DNA of 36,275 nucleotides from a virus (Duplodnaviria > Caudoviricetes), in IMG/VR virus record IMGVR_UViG_3300010373_000093, positions 1 through 36,275 of that record; one strand, written 5' to 3'. The position numbers were made by a program, and so were the translations under genes. Below the pieces are notes generated by a model. It was given only the letters and a program-made list of their open reading frames with translations, was not told the origin of the DNA and searched no databases. Below, in pieces: positions 17,765-35,530 of this stretch. The first letter of the stretch is position 1. The number at the start of each line of letters is the position of its first letter.

Positions 17765-19828
17765 TTACTTGCTAAGTTTCTTGAGGAGATGCGGGCTAGC
17801 CATCTCCGTATAGTCGATATTGGTAGTCGGAATTGCTTCGCCCAAGTTGGCGTTAGCGGTTACATCCGGAGCGCCCGCGCCACCAAAATAGAGCGCTTGG
17901 GGCTGCTGCTGGCTGTTCTGAACCGGAGGCAGAATCAACTCCATTTCCTTGAGTTCACCAAGCGACTTCTGCATATAGCGGTTGCCGACTTGATTACGCT
18001 TATCCTTGTCGGCGATATTGCCAACCAGACGCGAGACGATGCGATGCTTCTCTTCGATCTCAACACGGCGCGCGTTGGCCATGATCTCGCGCACGGCGGG
18101 GGGTGCGTTCGACTCCTTGAGCCACTGGTCAATGGCCTTGTTACCTGTGTACTCGTCCTTGGTGCCTTTGCCACCCGCTTGCATGGAACCGCCCTTACCG
18201 GAGCCGGAACCATCAAAGGAGTGCATATTCGTGTCGTCATTGTTCATGTACTCATCGTCGTCCTCATCCTTCTTTTTGGCGTTGAGGACAGCGGTGATGG
18301 CCTTTTTCGTTTCCTCGCACTGGCAGTTTGCCGCCAGCGCTTCCAGTTCTTTGCGCTTCATAAGGTCACTTTCTTTCGTAGGTTTGAGAGTGGAATGGTA
18401 CTGGAGAGCCGGCGCAGATCGTGCTTTGGTCGCGTGGTAGTTTGCCGCCGCGATATGGGCATTTTGCAGGTACGGGTTATTGCTTGCTTTGGCACACTTC
18501 GCGGCAACGCGATGAGAGTGAGCCGCAATTAGATGTTCTTCTGCCGTGCCACCCTTCGTAGCATCCTGGCTGGCCTGAGCCGCGCGGAAAGATTCAGGAC
18601 TCGAGGCACCAGCCAGATGAGCCATAAAGCCCTGGCGCTGGCCGTCGTCGGACATATCGGTCTGAGGGACAGGAGGCATGGCGTTGGTAGTTCCTTTCCA
18701 GGAATCGGGTAGGGCAAGTCCTTTGCGCTCGGCAATCGTTTTGATTTTGCTCTTTACCAAGTCGGGATTATCGGCGTGGCCAATGAGACGTGCTGCATGG
18801 TCTACGTCTTCCTGACTCTTAATCGGGAACGACTGATGCGGCCCAGCAAAATCTTCCGGTGCTTCCTTGGCAAGAGCATCTCGCGCGGACTGGTTCCATT
18901 TGGCGTTATAGACGAGGAAAGCAGCTACTTCTTCCACAGCGTTATTCTCCGTTGGCGTGGGAGTTTTTACTTTTTCGGAGTATTCTTCTTCGGCGCTGCC
19001 GGCCTCCGCACTACCAACCCGCGCTTGCTTGGCAGGTTTCAGAACTGGCTCGCCGGGAGTATTGGCTACCGATTCCTTCGGCTCTTTTTCTTTCGGTTCC
19101 TTGGGTGTCTTCGGCGCGGCGGGTTCTTTAGCCTCTTTAGGTTCAGAAGCAGGTTTCTCCTCTCCACCGGGACCATCAAAACCTTCACCCCTGACCTGTT
19201 GAGCCACAGCCTGCGCTTGACCAAGGGGATTGGGACTTTGGCCAAAGGTGTAGGCGTTGTCAGTCGTCTCCTGATTGAAGACACCGCAGCCGTCTTGTAG
19301 CGAGCAAGCGCCTACTTGATCGGGCAGGATGGCAATGTGGTCCGGTTTGTAGTCTTTGGCTACGAACTGATAGGGCTTGCCGTTGTGGTTGGCGCTAGGA
19401 CTGGCCGGTTCGTTCGTTGTGTATAGCCCAGTGGAAAGCTCAATAGGCTGACCGGCCTGGAGTGCCTGAAGAACGCGGTTATCAACCGTGCGTGTTCGCT
19501 CTACGTCAAACCAGCCTTGCGTTTGGAGCTTACCCGTCGTGGGATCGATCTTGGCGTTACGAGCAAAGCCAATCTCGCTCTTCTCGCGTACTCCTGGCGT
19601 GTTGACGGAAACATGCTGACCGAGTACCACAGGATGGTAAACGACAAGCGGGATCGTGTTCCAGGACTTATGCTCTTTGGCTATCTCATCGGGAGGATAA
19701 TAGAGAGCGCCCTTACTCCCGTTGAGAACGCCCGGCACGATCAGAGTCATGGGCGCGACTAAATACTCTCTGCCGTTATGCCGGACACGGGCCGCTTTGC
19801 CCGTTAGATTGGCCGTGATTCGTTCCAT
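17765..19828 (-). CDS. DUF2213-type prohead protease/scaffold protein with inserted DUF6582-like domain
   Basis: VPGVLNGS, PLVVYHP, IELSTGL and PDHIAILPDQVGACS..DGCG motifs. Internal FAGPHQSFPI...LPDSW domain and a long charged scaffold region. Confidence 0.85.
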   Translation of the reverse strand: MERITANLTGKAARVRHNGREYLVAPMTLIVPGVLNGSKGALYYPPDEIAKEHKSWNTIPLVVYHPVVLGQHVSVNTPGVREKSEIGFARNAKIDPTTGKLQTQGWFDVERTRTVDNRVLQALQAGQPIELSTGLYTTNEPASPSANHNGKPYQFVAKDYKPDHIAILPDQVGACSLQDGCGVFNQETTDNAYTFGQSPNPLGQAQAVAQQVRGEGFDGPGGEEKPASEPKEAKEPAAPKTPKEPKEKEPKESVANTPGEPVLKPAKQARVGSAEAGSAEEEYSEKVKTPTPTENNAVEEVAAFLVYNAKWNQSARDALAKEAPEDFAGPHQSFPIKSQEDVDHAARLIGHADNPDLVKSKIKTIAERKGLALPDSWKGTTNAMPPVPQTDMSDDGQRQGFMAHLAGASSPESFRAAQASQDATKGGTAEEHLIAAHSHRVAAKCAKASNNPYLQNAHIAAANYHATKARSAPALQYHSTLKPTKESDLMKRKELEALAANCQCEETKKAITAVLNAKKKDEDDDEYMNNDDTNMHSFDGSGSGKGGSMQAGGKGTKDEYTGNKAIDQWLKESNAPPAVREIMANARRVEIEEKHRIVSRLVGNIADKDKRNQVGNRYMQKSLGELKEMELILPPVQNSQQQPQALYFGGAGAPDVTANANLGEAIPTTNIDYTEMASPHLLKKLSK

Positions 19829-20135: not shown

Positions 20136-20396
20136 TTAATCGAACTCACGCGGCGCAGAAGCGCGCCCATAGGCAGAGTAGTAGCGGTAGCGCAGACATT
20201 CTAGAAACAACCGGGGGTCTGACTCAGCGGTTACAGGCTTCCAACCAGAAGGTGGGCCAGCCGTAGGGTTCTTGAGGATTTGCACCAGTCCAGGGCTGTC
20301 GTTGGATGTGACCAAACGGTTGCCGATAAGGAGAATTACCCCTTCGGAAACATCTTGCCCGTGGTCGTTAAGGCCGCGAATTTCTACTCCGAGCAT
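20136..20396 (-). CDS. Small protein directly downstream of the kinase domain (candidate immunity/partner)
   Basis: Probable start MLGVEI at 20396, 4 nt after the upstream stop; GGAG RBS. Confidence 0.6.
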   Translation of the reverse strand: MLGVEIRGLNDHGQDVSEGVILLIGNRLVTSNDSPGLVQILKNPTAGPPSGWKPVTAESDPRLFLECLRYRYYSAYGRASAPREFD

Positions 20397-20400
20397 CTTA

Positions 20401-23400
20401 CTACTCCTTTTTATCACCGAACATGCGCTCAAATCCGGAAGCGTCATGGTTGCTCTTGGGATGTCTCTTAAAGGCACCAGCCGTACCGGGCTTATTGATG
20501 TCTACTTCATCACTATAAAGGCCAGCATCCGACTCGGAAGAGGATGGTCTTTCTCCAGAGGCGCTTGTATGAACTGGCCCTATGTTTTGTCCATAAAAGG
20601 CGGGCAGGTCCGTGAATGGCTTCCCACGTTCACCTGCCTTAGCGAGAATATCCAGGCGCTCTTTGGTGAGCTTAATGGCTTCTGGCTCGATTCCGTGTTC
20701 CTTGAGTGCTTTTTCGACCTCTGGCCATTTGCCGGTTAGCTTGGTCATTTCATAAGGCACGGTAAGCCAATCATTGTAGGTGTTGTTGCCGCCGAAGGAA
20801 TGGGTCGGAACCTTCATCTCTTCAAGCAAGTCTTGATTGGAAAAACCGCGTGACTTCACTGCTGGGAACGATAGCCCGTTGTCAATGAGGACCAGTTTAT
20901 TACCGTGCGTCAGCATCCAGTTGTTGTCGTGACGGTCTACGTTGCCTGTCAAATAGTCGAAGCAAGCAGCGCGAATACAGTCGGTGCGCCCATCATACTT
21001 GTCAGCATACCTCACACTGCGCGCGTTTTTGGCCCCTGGCACAAACTTTTGGAGAGAACCTAGTCCGCCGTGGTCTGGTAAGTCGCGTATACAAGTCGGA
21101 GGTACAAGGTCTTCAAAGCCACATATTTTGGCCACGGCATAAGCAGCCGCTTCCCGCCGATACATGGTGCCGCCGTCGATACCGTCGCGCAAGCCATCTT
21201 CTTCAGCGGAAGCTGGCTTTAGCACTCCCTCAACTCCATTATCGAGTGTGACCTTATACGAGCCGTTGATGCCACCACCTAGGTAAGAATCGTGGACTAC
21301 CTTCGCCGTGGCGATGGATTCGGTGCCAGGTATCCGTGGAACATCTTCAACCTTTGGTGCTTCGGGTTTGTCGCCGTGCTTATCAAGGTGGACTGCTTGT
21401 GTGTTGGAATCATCACCCCGCGTCGGTGGATGTGTTACCTTATCTACCAAGCGCAGTTCGGGAGATTCGCCTCGGTCGCTCCGACTGTGCCACTCGGAAG
21501 GCTTCTCACCTGCCGGTTGTCGATCTGCAATCTTGTCCCACTCCTCGCGCTCTTTGGTTTCTTCCCCGTGTTTGCGCGTCTTGAAGGCCATCGGCACCTT
21601 GGTCATGTCCCTCTTGGGGTTGGGCACCACCGCTTCTCGACGGGCAATCGGATCAATTGGGCCAGCAATTCGCACATCGCCACTTTCCTTGGACCAGCGC
21701 CCGCTACGGTCGCGCGGCTGGTTGGGGTCATAGTTGGCTAAAAGGTCGGAGAAGCTCTCCAGAGCGGATTTTTTGGCCTGAAACTGCACAGGTTGCCACA
21801 AGCAACGGCAGTGTGGGTCATGGGCACGTTCGTTGTGGAGCAGTTCTACTGTATAAACTCTACGGGCATTATGACAGGTCGTGCCCCTGGCCGGAATGGG
21901 CTTAACAGTTCCTACTCCCAAAGCGCGGTAGGCATCCAGTTGCCCAGCTTGATGAGCATGAATAACCCCTACACGCGCTGCGGCTCCTGTGAGATGCTTC
22001 GGATAGGACTGATAGAGGCGCGAGAGAGCGTTGACCGTAACGTGACCAGACTGACGCGCGACGTTCTGAGTAAACTCGGCACTGGCTCCTATAAAACCAA
22101 TCTGCGCGGCTGCTTCGACCGAGCCTTGCGTATCACGCGCGCGGCGAGCCAGATCGTAGGCTTTCTGAACGCCCTTGACGTAGGCCGCGCCTAGGTAGTT
22201 GGTCCAGAGGGCATTGTTGGCAAAGGAGCCTCCAGTTCCTTTTTGGCTTCTGCCATTTCCTCTGGCGTTGGCTCCCGGCCCGTCAGATGAATGAACATTT
22301 GCCGTAGTTCGTCCAAGGTCAGTTCCTTGGTATCGGTCAGAGTCAGTTTGGGCTTGATGGAGATGGACATTGTGAACGCCTCCCGAAGTCGCGTTAGGGT
22401 TGACCTCCACAGACTTAAAGGTCTGGAGATCGAAATAGGCCAGTTGATCTTTTTCAAGCGCTAGCTGCCTTGCTGCTGCTTCCTCTGATTTTACCACAGA
22501 CACATCAAGGAAGACCTTGTGGCTCTGGGGATCGTGCCAGGCTCCCAAGTAGTGGTCAGGCTGGCTCAATAGGTCGTGGTTTTTCTTCAAGTAGCGCGCC
22601 AGGTCCACGGGCTTTAGTTCCTTCATCCCCTTGGCAAAAGAGCGCTCAGGATAAGGGCTAACCGCGTAGCCACGACTGGGTTCTCGGCCTGTACCCAGTT
22701 GATAGGTAAAACCACCATCGGGCTTGGCCACTCGGTCAAAAAGGGAGTGGAGCGTCCCTACCGTCGTGGCCGATACGTGCTTCGGTAGAATCTCTGGAGC
22801 AAGCTTAGCTTCGATGTGCGTCTGACCCTTGCCTTCAGCCTCAACGAGCCGGTGGTAGCCATCACCTAGCTCCAGTTCCTTTTGACCAGCGCGACGGTAG
22901 ACCTTGACCGGACCTGGAGTTTGCGACAATAGCCCTCGCTTAACGTCACTTTTGGCCAGGTCGTAATTGGCTTGGTCGAGCTTTAAGGATTTGATGGGGA
23001 TGGAAGTTGTTTCAGTATCCCCCGCGCCTTCAGTAACGTAAGTTGTCGGTGGAGAGTACTCTAGTCCATGATCCTTCATGTACTGGGCTGCGACGTGGCG
23101 GATATGAGCGCTTGGACCAACCGGAACTTCGCCGATACCTTTGATCTTGGCTGTTTTAGGTAAACCAACGAGAGGTTCGGATTCACCGAGAGTGCCCCCA
23201 TTTGTCCACCGTCCGTGGTAATCGCGCGCTTCTTCTGGGTTAAAGTTATAGATATTCTCTTGGCTTGGATCGAAGGTGCCTTGATTGTGCGCGGACTTAA
23301 TCTGATTGGGGTCGAAAGCGATCCACACGCGCGCAGGCTTTCCCGAAGCATCCTTGCCCATGTGGGTAATGCCGTCGAAGCCAAGTTTACGGAGCTTGGC

Positions 23401-24057
23401 AGTCGCTTTCTTATTGCCACCTAAAGCGCTAGAGATGAACTCATAGCCAAACTTGGCCAGGCCAGGATTTTGTAAGAAGTTCTTTGTATGGGCATCGGCA
23501 TCGAAGGGGCGCTTGATATTAAGATAAACAGGTAAGACATGAACCGGCCCTTTACCCTGACTCCCACCCATGACGTTGCCACCACCCCATTCCTTGGAGG
23601 ACTGCTCGCTTTCGGAGAAGTAGAATCCTGGACCCATGAGCGCTCTATCGTTTTGCCGGTTCTTATCAAAGGCCGAGAAGTTGGCCTTGGTGCCGTGGTA
23701 AACGACCAGCGGTCTACCCTTATCGTCGGTAACATGGGAAGGCTCGACAGGTGTAACCGGCTTGGGACGGCCTGTAAGCGCGGAAACGACCTTCGACAAA
23801 AGGCCAGGCTTTTGCGGTTTCGACCAGTCGCCAAACCACTTCTTAAAAGCGCCTGAATGGATATCCGCTTCCTTGCTCGATCCAGCCGATCCACCGGCTC
23901 CCCCTGAAGTCCATTCGCCTCCCCCTGACTCTCCCGAAGGGATACGAGCTTCGCTAGGGTCGTAGTTGGCCAGAAGCTTACGGACAAACTCCGAGCGCAG
24001 ATTTAAGGTCTGAGTCGGATCGTAGCGGAGTGGGTTGGGTCGAGGTTTTCGTTTCAT
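20401..24057 (-). CDS. MuF (Phage_Mu_F/SPP1 gp7-like) polyvalent head protein with ART-like, ParB-like, unknown and PI3/4-kinase-like domains
   Basis: Probable start ATG 24057 (ATGA overlap). ART-PolyVal-like: FKKWFG, PLVVYHGT, GFYF, GFDGI, FDPNQIKS. ParB-like: GDGYHRL. MuF remnant: HAHQAGQLDA..LGV, HDPHCRCLWQP. Kinase: GVLKP, REAAAY, GSLQ, DRHDNN, LIDNGLSF. Confidence 0.85.
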   Translation of the reverse strand: MKRKPRPNPLRYDPTQTLNLRSEFVRKLLANYDPSEARIPSGESGGGEWTSGGAGGSAGSSKEADIHSGAFKKWFGDWSKPQKPGLLSKVVSALTGRPKPVTPVEPSHVTDDKGRPLVVYHGTKANFSAFDKNRQNDRALMGPGFYFSESEQSSKEWGGGNVMGGSQGKGPVHVLPVYLNIKRPFDADAHTKNFLQNPGLAKFGYEFISSALGGNKKATAKLRKLGFDGITHMGKDASGKPARVWIAFDPNQIKSAHNQGTFDPSQENIYNFNPEEARDYHGRWTNGGTLGESEPLVGLPKTAKIKGIGEVPVGPSAHIRHVAAQYMKDHGLEYSPPTTYVTEGAGDTETTSIPIKSLKLDQANYDLAKSDVKRGLLSQTPGPVKVYRRAGQKELELGDGYHRLVEAEGKGQTHIEAKLAPEILPKHVSATTVGTLHSLFDRVAKPDGGFTYQLGTGREPSRGYAVSPYPERSFAKGMKELKPVDLARYLKKNHDLLSQPDHYLGAWHDPQSHKVFLDVSVVKSEEAAARQLALEKDQLAYFDLQTFKSVEVNPNATSGGVHNVHLHQAQTDSDRYQGTDLGRTTANVHSSDGPGANARGNGRSQKGTGGSFANNALWTNYLGAAYVKGVQKAYDLARRARDTQGSVEAAAQIGFIGASAEFTQNVARQSGHVTVNALSRLYQSYPKHLTGAAARVGVIHAHQAGQLDAYRALGVGTVKPIPARGTTCHNARRVYTVELLHNERAHDPHCRCLWQPVQFQAKKSALESFSDLLANYDPNQPRDRSGRWSKESGDVRIAGPIDPIARREAVVPNPKRDMTKVPMAFKTRKHGEETKEREEWDKIADRQPAGEKPSEWHSRSDRGESPELRLVDKVTHPPTRGDDSNTQAVHLDKHGDKPEAPKVEDVPRIPGTESIATAKVVHDSYLGGGINGSYKVTLDNGVEGVLKPASAEEDGLRDGIDGGTMYRREAAAYAVAKICGFEDLVPPTCIRDLPDHGGLGSLQKFVPGAKNARSVRYADKYDGRTDCIRAACFDYLTGNVDRHDNNWMLTHGNKLVLIDNGLSFPAVKSRGFSNQDLLEEMKVPTHSFGGNNTYNDWLTVPYEMTKLTGKWPEVEKALKEHGIEPEAIKLTKERLDILAKAGERGKPFTDLPAFYGQNIGPVHTSASGERPSSSESDAGLYSDEVDINKPGTAGAFKRHPKSNHDASGFERMFGDKKE
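22191..22370 (-). CDS. Nested out-of-frame 59-aa gene inside the MuF polyvalent gene
   Basis: GGGAGG 8 nt before ATG 22370. Product MSISIKPKLTLTDTKELTLDELRQMFIHLTGREPTPEEMAEAKKELE looks like an ordered helical hairpin. Confidence 0.6.
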   Translation of the reverse strand: MSISIKPKLTLTDTKELTLDELRQMFIHLTGREPTPEEMAEAKKELEAPLPTMPSGPTT

Positions 24058-24272
24058 CCGATAAAGTCCTTGTCTTTGGCCATGCTCCAGATTGCCCAGA
24101 GGAGAAAGGCGCAACCTGCCACAAGAACGGGCCACGCGAACCAGAGAGGTATACCCGGTTCCTGATAGACGACGGTGACAACAGAGGCTATCCAGACAAG
24201 AAAGCCGACACCTGTAAGGAGGAAGATAGCCGCGACAAAGGCCAGAGTCAGTAAACCCTTAAGGATGTGCAT
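24054..24272 (-). CDS. Small two-TM membrane protein
   Basis: 72 aa with two strongly hydrophobic helices; RBS AAGGGG; coupled to the MuF gene. Confidence 0.7.
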   Translation of the reverse strand: MHILKGLLTLAFVAAIFLLTGVGFLVWIASVVTVVYQEPGIPLWFAWPVLVAGCAFLLWAIWSMAKDKDFIG

Positions 24273-24281
24273 GTGTGCCCC

Positions 24282-25748
24282 TTAGTGGCTGGAGAGAAGT
24301 CCTGTTACCAGTTTCGCTCCGTTCTCGGTGTTCAGGTCATGCCAGAGCGGATGCTCCATTATAGCCTGGATCGAGTGTTTAAGCATGTGCGTGGCGTAGT
24401 GGATGGCCGGATGGTCAGCGTCCAGGTCGCCTCCCAAAGCAATTGTCTTGCCCGTGGCCGTGTTCGCCGTTTGGAGAGGCAAGCGCTCTTTACCAAAGTG
24501 GCCAGGTGCCGTCCAACCTTGTGGATGAAGATGGAGTCCAGCCCAGACCGCTCTACCCGCTTTACCAGCCACATGCCCTGTCGCTTTCGCTGCACTACCA
24601 GCCTTATGAGCTAGGGAACTGGCTTCCGAGTGAATCAGTCGCCCTTCTTTCAGAAGATGCAGACCCGTCAGGTTCTCCAAGTGATGTTCCGCTGCTTCCA
24701 CTAGATGCGTCACGCCTTTACCGACCCGCGAGTTGGCCAAGGCGCGATGGATATTGCCAAGGTGTTGGGCAAAGGTGGAATGCTGTAACCCAGTCTTCTC
24801 AAAAGCACGGGCCATATGATGCGCAGCTAATAGACTGGCATAGCCGACTCCCGGCATGGCATAGCCACCAAATCCTTGCAGTCCTTCGTGGGCTGCATGG
24901 ACCATATGCTCGGACAAGTGGCCAAAGGCAGTACCAGCCACCGCGCCAGCCGGACCAGCCAGAGCATGGGCTAGGGCACCTTTGATGCCTAGGGTAGCTG
25001 CGGTGGCTCCCAAGTGGAGATAGGGAGCCAGTGCCCCATGCTCCTTTTTCATCTGCTCGTAAAGTTCATTCTGCTTCTGCTCGATTGTCTTGGAACCCTT
25101 CCGGAATGGATTGCGGATGTGCTTTTCTGCCCAAGAGCTAACCTTACTGCCAAGAATGGCCCCCGTTGCCTCCGCAAACGCTCCCAAAGCATGATCCCCA
25201 TGTCCATGCCCTCCATGCTCGCCGTGGCCTCCATGAGCCGCTTCATGGCCTCCACCAGTGGCTTCTTCTACTCCCGCGTGTCCGGCCTCATGGACCGCTC
25301 CTGAAGTTGCGGCAGAGTGAACCGCATCATGTGCGGCTGCTTTGGCGGCAGCATGATGCTCATGGAGAGCAGAGACAGCGTGTTCAACCCCTTCTGACGT
25401 GCCGGCCTGTGCAGCGCGCGCTCCGCCCTGAGCCACGAAGCGAGCGGCAACTTTGGGCAAGTTCTGAATGACTTGCTGCACATGGCCTAGTTCGTGGTTG
25501 ACGTTGGCTAAATTACTCGCCATTGGGTGGTGATGTTCATGGCCACCGTGCCCATGCTCGCCATGCCCAGCGTGCGCTTCGGCAGGCATTCCGTGTTCGG
25601 GCGCTGGCGCTCCAGGTCCACCGTGGCCGGGTTCCGCGCCTCCCCGTTCACCGGGTCGCCCAGCATGGCCAAAGTCACCAGAGCCAGCCCCGCCGTGAAG
25701 GACAAGCCCGGTCGCGCTCTCACCTTTAACAAATGTGAAATCGTTCAT
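24282..25748 (-). CDS. His/Gly/Ala-rich protein, probable internal head protein
   Basis: 488 aa, ATGA-coupled to the portal gene. N-terminal GGAGSGDFGHAGRPGERGG motif and HGEHGHGGHEHHH-type tracts. Confidence 0.7.
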   Translation of the reverse strand: MNDFTFVKGESATGLVLHGGAGSGDFGHAGRPGERGGAEPGHGGPGAPAPEHGMPAEAHAGHGEHGHGGHEHHHPMASNLANVNHELGHVQQVIQNLPKVAARFVAQGGARAAQAGTSEGVEHAVSALHEHHAAAKAAAHDAVHSAATSGAVHEAGHAGVEEATGGGHEAAHGGHGEHGGHGHGDHALGAFAEATGAILGSKVSSWAEKHIRNPFRKGSKTIEQKQNELYEQMKKEHGALAPYLHLGATAATLGIKGALAHALAGPAGAVAGTAFGHLSEHMVHAAHEGLQGFGGYAMPGVGYASLLAAHHMARAFEKTGLQHSTFAQHLGNIHRALANSRVGKGVTHLVEAAEHHLENLTGLHLLKEGRLIHSEASSLAHKAGSAAKATGHVAGKAGRAVWAGLHLHPQGWTAPGHFGKERLPLQTANTATGKTIALGGDLDADHPAIHYATHMLKHSIQAIMEHPLWHDLNTENGAKLVTGLLSSH

Positions 25749-27913
25749 GCTTCAGGTTCCTCTTGACTGGACTGTCCGGGGAATGGTTTTTGTGTACTGC
25801 CGGCTCCCGGTGGACCTTTGCCAAAACCGGGCTTGCCGCCAAAGGGCGGTTTGTTACCAGCCTGAGCGCCGGCCTTGATTTCCATTTCTGTCTGTTCGGG
25901 GTCGTGATAGCCCGGTGGGGGAGTTGGCTCAAAGCCATGCTGTTCGGCAAGCTGCTGCGCCTGTTCCTGATCCTCTTGCATTTTATCCTCAGCATCCTGA
26001 AGGATTTGCTGAGCATCCTGTTCGTCGAAATCATCTACCTTGGTCATAAAGGCCATTGGTGGCACAATCGATTGCACATTACCAGCCACGTAAGCCGAGT
26101 ACGCTTGCGCCTTCTGAAGAAGTATTTGCGCCTTCTGAAGCTTGGTCTGGGCGTCCAGGTCCGGCCACTTGCAATACCACTGTTTGGGCTTGGGCAGAAT
26201 GCCAATAAGGATAAAGCGCTCAATTAGAGGGACGATGATACGAGGCGTCACATGCGTTACTTGCCGATGGCGCACACGATCATTCCAGGTTGAATCGTCT
26301 TGGTTACTGGCTAGCTCGCCCCGCTCGCTACCTTTGAAAACGCGCACGGGAATCGTTAGCTCGATACAGATAGCTTCGATCTGTTTATCAACTTGCTGGG
26401 TGGGATCGACCACCGTAGGCGATAAGACCTTGGCCGACATGCCAGTTAGCTGCAAGTAGCGCTGAAGACCGTTCCGGTACTGGCCCATCATGGAGCGCAC
26501 AGCCGTTTGGTCGATCAGCACGTCGCCGCCAAGGTTCGGGTTGGTTTCTAGGCTAAGGCCAGGGAACGCGCCGGCCCAGTACATTTCCGCTGAACCGCCA
26601 TACAGTTTGCGCAAGTCTAGCAAGCGGTTGTAGACAGGTTGCATGCGCGGCACGCCGAAGATTTCTGAGTTTCTCAGATTGTCGGCTATATGAATGACGC
26701 GGGACCAGTGGACTCGGACAGTCGCAAGAGGTAATCCAATTCCCGTATGAGGCTGGGATGGGTCGTTAAGGGTAACGAGGTACATAAGGGGTTGTCCGAA
26801 GCGCGGATTTCGGATGTTGGCTTCGTACTGCACAACTTGAACCATTGACTCATCGAAGACGCGGATATAGAGGAGTTTTCGAGTAGGCTGTCCAGGATTT
26901 CCTGGCGCAAACTCGTCAGAGGGTGGATACTCGGAACTGGAAGGGAGGAAGGGCAATCCGCTATCGTCCTCATCATCCGCTTCTTCATCTCCTTCATCCG
27001 GCGCTTGTGTTTGCGAATCTTCTTCGCTCTGCGCTTGGCCCGTGCCAACGTCTTCTTGTTCTGGCTCATAGCCTCCCCCTTTCATGGGACTCGTTGGATT
27101 ACCACCGTGATAGCTTGTGGGAGTGAACTGAGTACCAAAATACTGCGCGTCCGTGCCCATCGTGGACGAAAGCTGTTGCTCCTGTGGCTGTTCGCCATAA
27201 ATGGACTTTGACAGCACGTCCTCAGCGCTTGTACCCTGTTGCCCGACTTGGCCTGGATTCGTCACTTGCGCGGTTTGGGCTTGGGGGTCGATAGGCGTTT
27301 GGCCGGCTGGAGAAGAAGCGTTATCGGCTGGCGTCACGGTGGCATAGGGGTTGCCATCGGGCGGAAAGCCAGCGACAGGCGCTTGTAGTTCTAACCCGTC
27401 GTCGATACCAAGAAGCATGATGCCGAACGTACCAATACCAGACAGAATGTCGGCGCGGCAGCAGTAGTTCCAGAGGGGATGGCCGCCAAAGGCCGAATCA
27501 TACGTGGTGTTCTGACCGTTCAGAGATTTAACAAGGTCAAGAATCGCTTGCTTGAAAGGTGTCTCTAAGGGACTACCGTTCTCGTCTACCTTATCGGGAT
27601 CGGTGTTCTCTTCGTCGAATATCTCTGGCTGGACTTGCCACGTCTCTTTGGGCCAGACATTGACAACCCGCTCGGCTACCCCTTCTCGCGCATATAGAGC
27701 GCGGTAGTAGTCAATAGGCAGATACTCGCCGGAAGGGTAGTTACATTCTTCGTCGATATTGCGCCGGCCATCGACAAGCCTATCGAGGAACTGCCCACGC
27801 GCAAGGAACGAATTGGAAACGAGTTGTTCCAACAAGTTCAGGGCGAAGGGATCGGGCAAGCCACCGGAGGATCGTTTGGTAACTTGCCCGACTGGAGAGT
27901 TGGATTTGGACAT
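25745..27913 (-). CDS. Portal protein (DUF1073 type) with long low-complexity insertion
   Basis: YAREGVAERVV..WPKETW, RADILSGIG.FG, VHWSRVIHIAD, IPVRVFKGSERGELAS.QD, W.DL motifs; AGGAG RBS. Confidence 0.88.
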   Translation of the reverse strand: MSKSNSPVGQVTKRSSGGLPDPFALNLLEQLVSNSFLARGQFLDRLVDGRRNIDEECNYPSGEYLPIDYYRALYAREGVAERVVNVWPKETWQVQPEIFDEENTDPDKVDENGSPLETPFKQAILDLVKSLNGQNTTYDSAFGGHPLWNYCCRADILSGIGTFGIMLLGIDDGLELQAPVAGFPPDGNPYATVTPADNASSPAGQTPIDPQAQTAQVTNPGQVGQQGTSAEDVLSKSIYGEQPQEQQLSSTMGTDAQYFGTQFTPTSYHGGNPTSPMKGGGYEPEQEDVGTGQAQSEEDSQTQAPDEGDEEADDEDDSGLPFLPSSSEYPPSDEFAPGNPGQPTRKLLYIRVFDESMVQVVQYEANIRNPRFGQPLMYLVTLNDPSQPHTGIGLPLATVRVHWSRVIHIADNLRNSEIFGVPRMQPVYNRLLDLRKLYGGSAEMYWAGAFPGLSLETNPNLGGDVLIDQTAVRSMMGQYRNGLQRYLQLTGMSAKVLSPTVVDPTQQVDKQIEAICIELTIPVRVFKGSERGELASNQDDSTWNDRVRHRQVTHVTPRIIVPLIERFILIGILPKPKQWYCKWPDLDAQTKLQKAQILLQKAQAYSAYVAGNVQSIVPPMAFMTKVDDFDEQDAQQILQDAEDKMQEDQEQAQQLAEQHGFEPTPPPGYHDPEQTEMEIKAGAQAGNKPPFGGKPGFGKGPPGAGSTQKPFPGQSSQEEPEA

Positions 27914-29361: not shown

Positions 29362-29512
29362 CCCTGCGCCAGAGGCGTATCTGCTGGACGAATACCGCCA
29401 GCATAGAGCCTAGCGCGAATCCCCAGCACAGCCCCCATACCATCGCTGTGCGCGCGGCCTCTTGAGCTATCTTGATGATCTCCAGTCGTAGGCTTTCCAT
29501 CTCCGGACTCAT
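29312..29512 (-). CDS. Small single-TM protein
   Basis: ATGA-coupled to dcd; VWGLCWGFALGSMLAVFV segment. Confidence 0.55.
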   Translation of the reverse strand: MSPEMESLRLEIIKIAQEAARTAMVWGLCWGFALGSMLAVFVQQIRLWRRDDHIRLLGSWLQNYGD

Positions 29513-30174
29513 TCTTTGATCCTCGACACGGTAACGCCGCGCTGGTTTTGGTAAATGCCACCCTTGTCTTTATAGCTGCGCTCTGGTATGGCATCGCCGA
29601 CGTGAAAACGAATCTGGCAGATGCCCTCCATGAAATGGACGCGCACAGGGCTATTGGCGTGATTAACGAGTTCGATGGTCAGGTTGCCTTCCCAGTCCGG
29701 CTCCAATGGCGTGACCAGTGGTTGTACAGCAACGCGGGCAATCGTAGACTTGCCCAGACAATCGGCCTGAAGAAAGCGCGGAATGCGCAGATACTCAAAG
29801 CTTGTACCCAGTACGCAACAGTGAGGATGGAGGATGAACGAGTTCACGTCCTCGCCATAGACGATGGTATCAAACATGCGCTTTTCATAGTCCGGATCGC
29901 GGAGCATCTTGGGATCGAGAATCTCTCCAAAGGTACTCTTAAATACCTTTAATTCGCGTCCTAGGCGCAGGTCGTAGCCGTAGTGGTTTAGACCGTAGGA
30001 CAACTTGCCCGGTCGGTCGCCGTAATCAGTAAACGGCTCGATCATGGGCAACGTAAAGGCATGGCGCTTGTGGGTCTGGGGACATTGGTAGCCGTAGATG
30101 GGTTTGTCCTCTGGGCCGTCGTAGGCCACTGGCAAGCAGAGGTTGCGAATTTGCCAGTCGGCGAGTAGCGTCAC
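29509..30174 (-). CDS. dcd: dCTP deaminase
   Basis: LSYGL..YGYDLRL, GKSTIAR, TPLEPDWEGNLTIEL, EGICQ and YQNQRGVT motifs. Confidence 0.92.
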   Translation of the reverse strand: MTLLADWQIRNLCLPVAYDGPEDKPIYGYQCPQTHKRHAFTLPMIEPFTDYGDRPGKLSYGLNHYGYDLRLGRELKVFKSTFGEILDPKMLRDPDYEKRMFDTIVYGEDVNSFILHPHCCVLGTSFEYLRIPRFLQADCLGKSTIARVAVQPLVTPLEPDWEGNLTIELVNHANSPVRVHFMEGICQIRFHVGDAIPERSYKDKGGIYQNQRGVTVSRIKE

Positions 30175-34622: not shown

Positions 34623-34830
34623 GTTGAGGTTGGATTTCAGGATGTTCGCGGGCGAACTTTTCCAAGTCCACTTGAGGCAGTTGGGGAATTTGCCAGCCCC
34701 ACCACAGGCGATGGATTTCCCCTTCTAAGGCTGTGTCAGTACCATCGTATAGCATCACAATGCCTTCGATGGCCGCAGCTAGACTAAGGCCCAGCACCAT
34801 GCCGATCAGATACCTCTTGAGAATCTTCAT
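34462..34830 (-). CDS. Small membrane protein overlapping both neighbours
   Basis: MKILKRYLIGMVLGLSLAAAIEGIVML N-terminus. The C-terminal half overlaps the next gene out of frame. Confidence 0.45.
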   Translation of the reverse strand: MKILKRYLIGMVLGLSLAAAIEGIVMLYDGTDTALEGEIHRLWWGWQIPQLPQVDLEKFAREHPEIQPQHEKDSSNVSRGSDQPDRSPHGGSDSRLSAHGQARQAPDAGVRSVAQKEVSPSR

Positions 34831-35530
34831 CGCTGTTTCCAATCATGTCATTGAGTTCTTTGAGTCCATTGGGAAGAATGGCGCGCACTGTCTCCATGTC
34901 CGTGCCTTCCAGTTGTTTCATTTCGATAGCTAAGCGTTGTTCCACTTCATCCGTGCGCATGCCATCGGGCAGGCTCTTGGCGACATCGGCGAAGTTGATA
35001 CTAAGCTTACGAACATCAACCTTCTTTGGTTCGTCGAGTCCCCACAATTCCCGCTTGGCCTGGAGGATTTGTAGGATCGTCACCATGTACCGATTATCAG
35101 GTAGCCGGCCTTCACGCTTGTCTACTACCTCCGTCAGTACCATCTCGCCGGTTGGGACGCGCTTCCTTTTACCATCTTCCCCTTCTACCGACTCATAGGC
35201 CGGCTCTTGCTTCTCGGTATGGCTTGTGGCGTCACGCTTTGACTTGAACCAAGCCTGCCACGCTTGCCATAGAGCGTCGTCATACTGCGCTTCTATCTCA
35301 CGTCTGCGCAGGTCTTTGTCTTTTGGTTTCCAATCACCACCGGCTTTGTCGATAGCGATTAGGTCGCGCTGTACTTGCCGTTCCGATTTGCCGACGATCT
35401 TGGCAATGCGCTGCACAGGGCAGCCACGTCTGCGCAGGCGACATATCTTCAATCGCCGCGCATCTATCTCTGACATTGGTACTCGCGCGCCTGCCATAAA
35501 ATCGTTATTCGATAATTTTTCGCTTGTCAC
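34784..35530 (-). CDS. terS: Terminase small subunit
   Basis: N-terminal HTH RRLKICRLRRRG...IAKIVGKSERQVQRDL, AWQAWFKSK and RELWGLDEPKK; upstream of TerL. Confidence 0.8.
   Translation of the reverse strand: MTSEKLSNNDFMAGARVPMSEIDARRLKICRLRRRGCPVQRIAKIVGKSERQVQRDLIAIDKAGGDWKPKDKDLRRREIEAQYDDALWQAWQAWFKSKRDATSHTEKQEPAYESVEGEDGKRKRVPTGEMVLTEVVDKREGRLPDNRYMVTILQILQAKRELWGLDEPKKVDVRKLSINFADVAKSLPDGMRTDEVEQRLAIEMKQLEGTDMETVRAILPNGLKELNDMIGNSDEDSQEVSDRHGAGP

Follow-up and report, generated by a model that had tools for sequence, protein, structure and literature searches.

A 59-codon gene nested out of frame in a phage MuF-like polyprotein gene is paired with an unnamed upstream domain and may encode its inhibitor

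Background

In polymorphic-toxin models the position of the toxin at the 3' tip of its gene explains the immunity genes, one recombination bringing both (PMC3482391, available sections). As presented there, the models do not say how a partner would stay with a toxic module that lies mid-polyprotein. The locus described here raises this question and suggests an answer, namely a partner gene overprinted on the linker behind the module. It lies in the window, the whole stretch of 36,275 nucleotides analysed, which is a phage contig read on the minus strand. Is the small open reading frame in the linker a gene, is it tied to the domain in front of it, and what might its product do?

The nested gene and its host polyprotein

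The host of the nested gene was a 1244-aa ORF situated in the head-packaging module, between the portal gene and a DUF2213-like gene. The features of the region were as follows.

25745..27913, minus strand: portal gene, given for context
20401..24135, minus strand: host gene, MuF-like polyvalent protein of 1244 codons, the start being perhaps ATG 24057 and not GTG 24135
23974..24042, minus strand: MuF-like N-terminal stub (DPT..L.LR..F), parted from the C-terminal piece by inserted modules
23278..23727, minus strand: ART-PolyVal ADP-ribosyltransferase domain, residues 137-286 (PF18760, E=1.7e-25)
22372..22758, minus strand: GGFT-GAW-LDVS-Q domain (GGFT domain below), residues 460-588, unnamed, with a confident alpha/beta model and weak matches to PHROG 17808 and 3170
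22379..22384, minus strand: Shine-Dalgarno (SD) sequence GGGAGG, with an 8-nt spacer to ATG 22370, coding in the main frame for the C-terminal S-G-G of the domain
22191..22370, minus strand: nested 59-aa partner gene in the +1 frame, its product comprising a K-P-x-L-x-L segment, a helix, TGREPTxEE and a second helix
22192..22371, minus strand: main-frame linker over the nested gene, residues 589-648, poorly conserved and beginning at an Asn site like those of the other modules
21736..22209, minus strand: degenerate MuF-like C-terminal part (WTNYL...HDPHCRC), matched by tblastn to the MuF region of L047 (E=0.002) and to L014 and L015 (E=1e-20)
20854..21237, minus strand: C-terminal PI3/4-kinase-like (SCO1664-like) domain
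20136..20396, minus strand: ordinary 86-aa gene with AGGAG, next after the polyprotein that has the kinase at its tip, with no PHROG match
17765..19828, minus strand: DUF2213-like / phrog_760 protein with repeated Asn sites (Pfam score 21.5, below the cut-off of 22)

The host product was a polyvalent protein in that at least two unrelated effector domains (ART-PolyVal and PI3/4-kinase-like) were present in one polypeptide beside virion genes. An earlier note on this DNA had called it a MuF polyprotein, a name that held in part: Pfam Phage_Mu_F (PF04233) gave no match in the window polyprotein, but a split and degenerate MuF-like part was carried. The split pieces matched the MuF regions of two related loci, L046 and L047, weakly, and PF04233 was present in the nested relative L009. 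Because the N-terminal stub and the HDPHCRC part match the MuF regions of related loci, the MuF-like scaffold of the window was taken to have been split by the inserted modules. Repeated Asn sites in the host protein (N57, N297, N589, N801) resembled, by motif inspection, sites in the neighbouring protease-like protein encoded at 17765..19828, which is presumably the head maturation protease.

The nested ORF ran from ATG at 22370 to TAG at 22193-22191 on the minus strand and was located wholly within ORF 24135-20401, with its own start, ribosome binding site and stop all inside, and its 59-aa product included TGREPTPEE. GGGAGG, ATG and product length were all as the earlier note had described for a hidden gene overprinted in the polyprotein gene, and residues 589-648 of the main frame read as the linker that it had quoted. 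The anti-SD pairing energy of ATG 22370 was -10.3 kcal/mol, a value equalled or exceeded at 7 of 227 out-of-frame ATGs in the 26 window genes (22370 counted in), three of the seven having at least 59 codons open, and only one of the 26 gene starts in the window paired more strongly. The per-codon codon-usage score was 0.145 in the nested frame and 0.019 in the main frame, and none of 359 control windows taken elsewhere in the genes of the window favoured the +1 frame as strongly. In the nested frame the GC contents at codon positions 1/2/3 were 0.54/0.44/0.59, and in the main frame 0.58/0.53/0.43. A search of 21900-23100 for sigma-70 promoters and terminators found none.

Contigs from three DNA runs covered the nested stretch with zero differing letters and zero indels, two of the three being perhaps the source of the window itself. 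No RNA run was listed as containing the stretch. An assembly artefact was ruled out by the conservation over nested loci, by the loci found from the partner alone and by the three DNA runs without an indel.

Homologues and pairing with the upstream domain

Scans of viral, metagenome and genome collections with the GGFT domain retrieved 57 loci, which were reduced to 42 after removal of nine duplicates, the contig of the window itself, two short fragments and three loci cut off after the domain. A match to the partner profile directly after the domain was found in 24 of the 42 distinct, untruncated loci, two of the matches, both free-standing, being weak (E about 1e-2). The partner was nested in a longer ORF in nine loci, overlapped a short extension in three, was free-standing in ten and was fused in frame in two. 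Many short homologues of the GGFT domain ended in SGG-x-stop, with the partner overlapping the stop and the SGG codons serving as the SD sequence of the partner.

The remaining 18 of the 42 loci had no partner profile match, and the GGFT domain can therefore exist without the nested-gene partner. Among these 18, other small downstream ORFs were seen by eye in seven, two of them nested in the +1 frame (L046 and L047), and about nine were polyproteins with no evident partner. Behind the GGFT domain, L046 (from 3257, plus strand) and L047 (from 3245, plus strand) had nested ORFs of another, shorter partner type, and these resembled free small ORFs of L052 and L054.

When contigs were scanned with only the partner as query, seven loci were obtained, with the GGFT domain directly upstream in six of them (four distinct), all nested in the +1 frame; the seventh was an unrelated repeat protein. 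Distinct nested cases numbered 14 including the window, the other 13 being from viral or metagenome contigs, and all 14 were in the +1 frame, with an ATG at the matching place and with start and stop intact. In an unbiased scan of 105 long ORFs in 53 loci, 42 nested ORFs with ATG and SD were found, and the sole cluster of more than two was the partner family with eight members. The nested gene is tightly paired with the GGFT domain upstream. Similarity of the domain and similarity of the partner were correlated (rho 0.37, reached in 2 of 5000 permutations, n=25), a weak result since kin share labels.

A word-indexed search with the 59-aa protein gave no match, and a profile search returned 846 representatives (clusters) at E up to 0.001. 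The best 150 of these had a median length of 58 aa and three had the domain in frame. The partner family had no match in Pfam, PHROGs or NCBIfam, no usable match in the ESM Atlas and, for the partner itself, none among 50,697 annotated phages. The partner's weak Pfam matches, to DUF1553 and sigma-70 region 3, fell below the cut-off and were discounted.

The earlier note had proposed a two-gene cassette of domain plus cognate partner and had suggested a check for stand-alone homologues of the 59-aa peptide. Such homologues were found right after the GGFT-GAW-LDVS domain, the reverse search returned the domain, and conservation was in the nested frame, all of which supports the existence of the cassette.

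Selection in the nested frame and change of layout

Conservation followed the nested frame when codon positions were compared in both frames, as the earlier note had advised. Among ten nested loci, nucleotide identity by partner codon position was 0.51/0.63/0.35 and amino-acid identity was 0.40 in the partner frame versus 0.19 in the main frame, the partner frame being higher in 45 of 45 pairs, which argues that the main frame is a spacer. Between the window and L014, the codon changes were 19 synonymous and 15 non-synonymous. These patterns indicate that purifying selection acts in the nested frame, and by conservation ORF 22370-22191 was confirmed as a real gene. It is hardly credible that the ORF is a relic without expression or arose by chance from the linker, given the third-position-biased divergence, the start and stop intact in 14 loci and the codon usage favouring the nested frame.

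Past the nested stop, the main frame continued into a module header in 11 of 14 cases (judged by eye, the header motifs being self-labelled) and into a MuF-like part in two of 14. Over the ten nested linkers no stops were seen versus 28.6 expected from synonymous recoding, the nested loci being open by definition. In the host-equivalent frame of free-standing partners, two stops were seen versus 14.6 expected, and five of seven were stop-free versus 1.55 expected. With nested loci open by definition and five of seven free partners open as well, openness of the main frame argues only weakly for selected read-through.

On a tree of the GGFT domain with 26 rows, seven changes of the nested label were needed, and a single clade of nested loci was rejected (AU p=0.0015, quick tree), which argues that the free, overlapping, nested and fused layouts interconvert. 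Because the nested loci are not one clade and five of seven free partners are stop-free, the direction implied by a cassette captured into the polyprotein is not preferred, and a passage from nested to free would be equally plausible as one from free to nested.

The GGFT domain

The GGFT domain was modelled with a pLDDT of 95. It was named in neither Pfam nor NCBIfam, and may figure in the FTP supplements (131 domains) of PMC5512222. ESM Atlas matches were to unnamed viral clusters only. Searches of the PDB by sequence, with Foldseek and with VIA-align (best Z 4.1) all gave no match. In BFVD, 23 proteins matched at E up to 0.001, most of them uncharacterised and from phages, and a DUF3293 protein matched at E 0.017. 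Phage S-CBP42 had a distant copy, located within a protein annotated as an internal virion protein.

A low-threshold alignment placed the invariant G72, W74, D85, S87 and Q105 of the domain in register with G56, Y58, E69, S71 and Q104 of SAM lyases; in that register the active-site Gly and Gln are present and Asp stands where the enzymes have Glu. The order of strands and helices was like that of phage SAM lyases (T3 gp0.3, Svi3-3; PMC7877911 and PMC12255297, available sections), and the spacing from G to the acid was 13 in both. The GGFT domain differed from the enzymes in those sections in that Tyr is changed to Trp and Glu to Asp and that the equivalent of Glu105 is missing. PF23780 (SAM lyase) had no match among 22 members of the domain family at E up to 1, and hhalign against seven SAM lyases scored 11.4, which was not significant as shuffles scored 7.5-17.8. 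Similarity among known SAM lyases is itself described as barely detectable (PMC7877911, in part). In a check for a ferredoxin-like fold, 7ock_L (Z 2.9, rmsd 5.5, 93 aligned) and 6znb (Z 2.4, rmsd 4.8, 72 aligned) were not set apart from unrelated structures. The favoured guess for what the domain does, put forward with low confidence as a lead, is that it is remotely related to the SAM-lyase/PII-like anti-defence enzymes.

Proposed role of the partner

We propose, with a probability of roughly 0.55, that the nested gene encodes an inhibitor, that is an immunity-type partner, of the GGFT domain directly upstream. Some ribosomes would initiate on ATG 22370, using the GGGAGG that doubles as code for the last residues of the domain, and other ribosomes would read the main frame straight through the linker. 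Once packaged in the head, the polyprotein would be cut by the maturation protease at the repeated Asn sites, putative cleavage sites recognised by motif inspection. Since the linker would be discarded after cutting, it need only be stop-free. The +1 frame is likely a cheap one because a stop can arise there only where a T-ending codon precedes AA, AG or GA. Once released, the GGFT domain would act as an injected effector, and in the producing cell it would be kept inactive by the 59-aa partner, made as a separate protein. There was no in-frame restart inside the linker of the window, and the modules downstream therefore depend on read-through.

Inhibition would fit the effector-rich company of the domain, as host proteins of the cassette carry ART, zeta toxin, kinase, 2H and PARP domains. 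It would also fit the small ORFs downstream of MuF toxins (PMC5576092, available sections) together with the small gene behind the C-terminal kinase of the window, and the second +1 nested ORF, located behind the zeta-toxin domain of L009. Neither an integrase nor a repressor was identified in the window, a fragment estimated to be 50% complete, so that a lysogen in need of immunity is hypothetical.

The main rival reading, possible but doubtful, makes the partner not an antidote but a second subunit or a chaperone that activates or stabilises the domain and is packaged with it. Such a role would account for the natural in-frame fusions of domain and partner (L024, L028, P0082), for the fusions that join the partner with MuF or with a module header (P0119, P0156) and for the tight coupling of the partner start to the end of the domain; the fusions suggest that the partner can travel with the effector, which suits a subunit at least as well as an antidote. 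The fold of the natural fusion P0082 had a pTM of 0.62, with both parts locally confident and the N-terminal segment of the partner unplaced. However, many partner-less copies of the domain retain the same invariant residues, and the fused partner of L024 retains its own ATG and GGAGG (L024:3406, plus strand), where an internal in-frame start may also be used. Nesting, moreover, yields a separate, unlinked protein, as suits a factor that stays behind.

It is improbable that the small protein acts independently, as an effector or packaging adaptor sharing the cassette but not binding the domain. The large size of the family (the 846 representatives, known as single sequences) and the fusion of three members (P0079, P0097, P0118) to unrelated domains would be expected of an independent protein, but the domain was directly upstream in six of the seven loci found from the partner and the pairing was kept across four layouts.

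A programmed +1 frameshift giving a domain-partner fusion and no separate protein is highly improbable: natural fusions exist and SD pairing was weak at three of the 14 nested starts (L006, L030, L060), but the ATG was at the matching position in every case, free-standing copies exist and the SD of the window was among the strongest of the contig.

Comparison with known systems

The MuF polymorphic toxins (Jamet et al. 2017, PMC5576092) are, in the available sections, like the window in their location in a head-packaging module and in a MuF-like scaffold with effector domains, and both have a small ORF directly after the effector-coding sequence. In those toxins the toxin is C-terminal and the small ORF lies past the stop codon, whereas in the window the domain is internal and the gene that encodes it also harbours the small gene, in another frame. 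The arrangement of a C-terminal toxin and a downstream ORF was not that of the GGFT domain and its partner and was apparently that of the kinase and the 86-aa gene, so the latter (20136-20396) is likely to be the immunity gene of the C-terminal kinase, as its position is the usual one for such genes. Phage polyvalent proteins (Iyer et al. 2017, PMC5512222) also carry several unrelated effector domains (ART-PolyVal, kinase-like) beside virion genes, and proteolytic release has been proposed for them; unlike the window, no embedded partner gene is described in the available sections of that report.

The Rz/Rz1 two-component spanins (Kongari et al. 2018, PMC6139136, available sections) are a cognate phage gene pair that is embedded, overlapped or separated, as is the pair described here. 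Spanins are membrane lysis proteins, whereas the gene embedded here lies in a spacer behind the partner domain of a multi-domain protein, and fused forms occur too. In Bacillus subtilis, comS in srfAB (PMC12915044) encodes a small protein in another frame of a very large modular gene, as here. ComS is a competence protein co-expressed with the operon and, in the available part of that source, is not described as the partner of a module of its host gene; unlike comS, the cassette described here turns up in many different host proteins.

MuF toxin-immunity pairs and polyvalent proteins were already known (PMC5576092, PMC5512222, PMC3482391, PMC9503650, as far as their available sections go), as were nested genes such as Rz/Rz1 and comS. 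Literature searches with mostly open-access coverage found no paper on nested immunity or partner genes in MuF or polyvalent proteins, and the combination of both was found in no paper.

Implications

The locus brings to light a domain-partner pair that has no name, has hundreds of relatives and is missed by gene callers when nested, and its free, overlapping, nested and fused forms are a natural series for the study of the origin of overlapping genes. If the partner is an inhibitor, a weapon in the middle of a polyprotein would carry its own antidote, hidden from annotation. A general design is offered tentatively and may well not hold: behind each internal weapon module, the disposable linker that the protease cuts would have an antitoxin gene overprinted in its +1 frame. 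Under such a design an effector cassette could be inserted at any point of the chain and would escape annotation. The L009 nested ORF that follows a zeta-toxin domain, and likewise the second type of partner in L046 and L047, would be further cases, and unknown domains that are toxins could be picked out by scanning linkers for nested genes.

The L009 ORF (L009:2897-3067, plus strand) was located right after the zeta-toxin domain of a MuF polyprotein and was nested in the +1 frame, with 56 aa, a GGAG and GC contents of 0.57/0.36/0.84. Homologue searches with this ORF found none. It is possibly a hidden antitoxin.

Other observations in the window and related loci

Modules in the window started after Asn sites (23967, 23247, 22371 and 21735, minus strand), and 17765-19828 (minus strand) likewise has Asn sites. 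Elsewhere modules started after Lys (L009, L020, L060, L062, L063) or after YADGG (L002), and these module-start residues look like a phage-specific protease code. A 488-aa His/Gly/Ala-rich protein with no family match (24282-25748, minus strand) was encoded between the portal gene and the polyprotein gene and opened with a GGAGSGDFGH header resembling the headers of other modules. The stretch 22803-22998 (minus strand) between the ART and GGFT domains appeared ParB-like by eye and had no Pfam match. Genes for a dCTP deaminase (29509-30174, minus strand) and for a PHROG 645 ('RNase E') protein (34784-35530, minus strand) were also present. A 127-codon +1 ORF with a strong SD-like pairing of -10.7 (26686-27069, minus strand) was located within the low-complexity insert of the portal gene.
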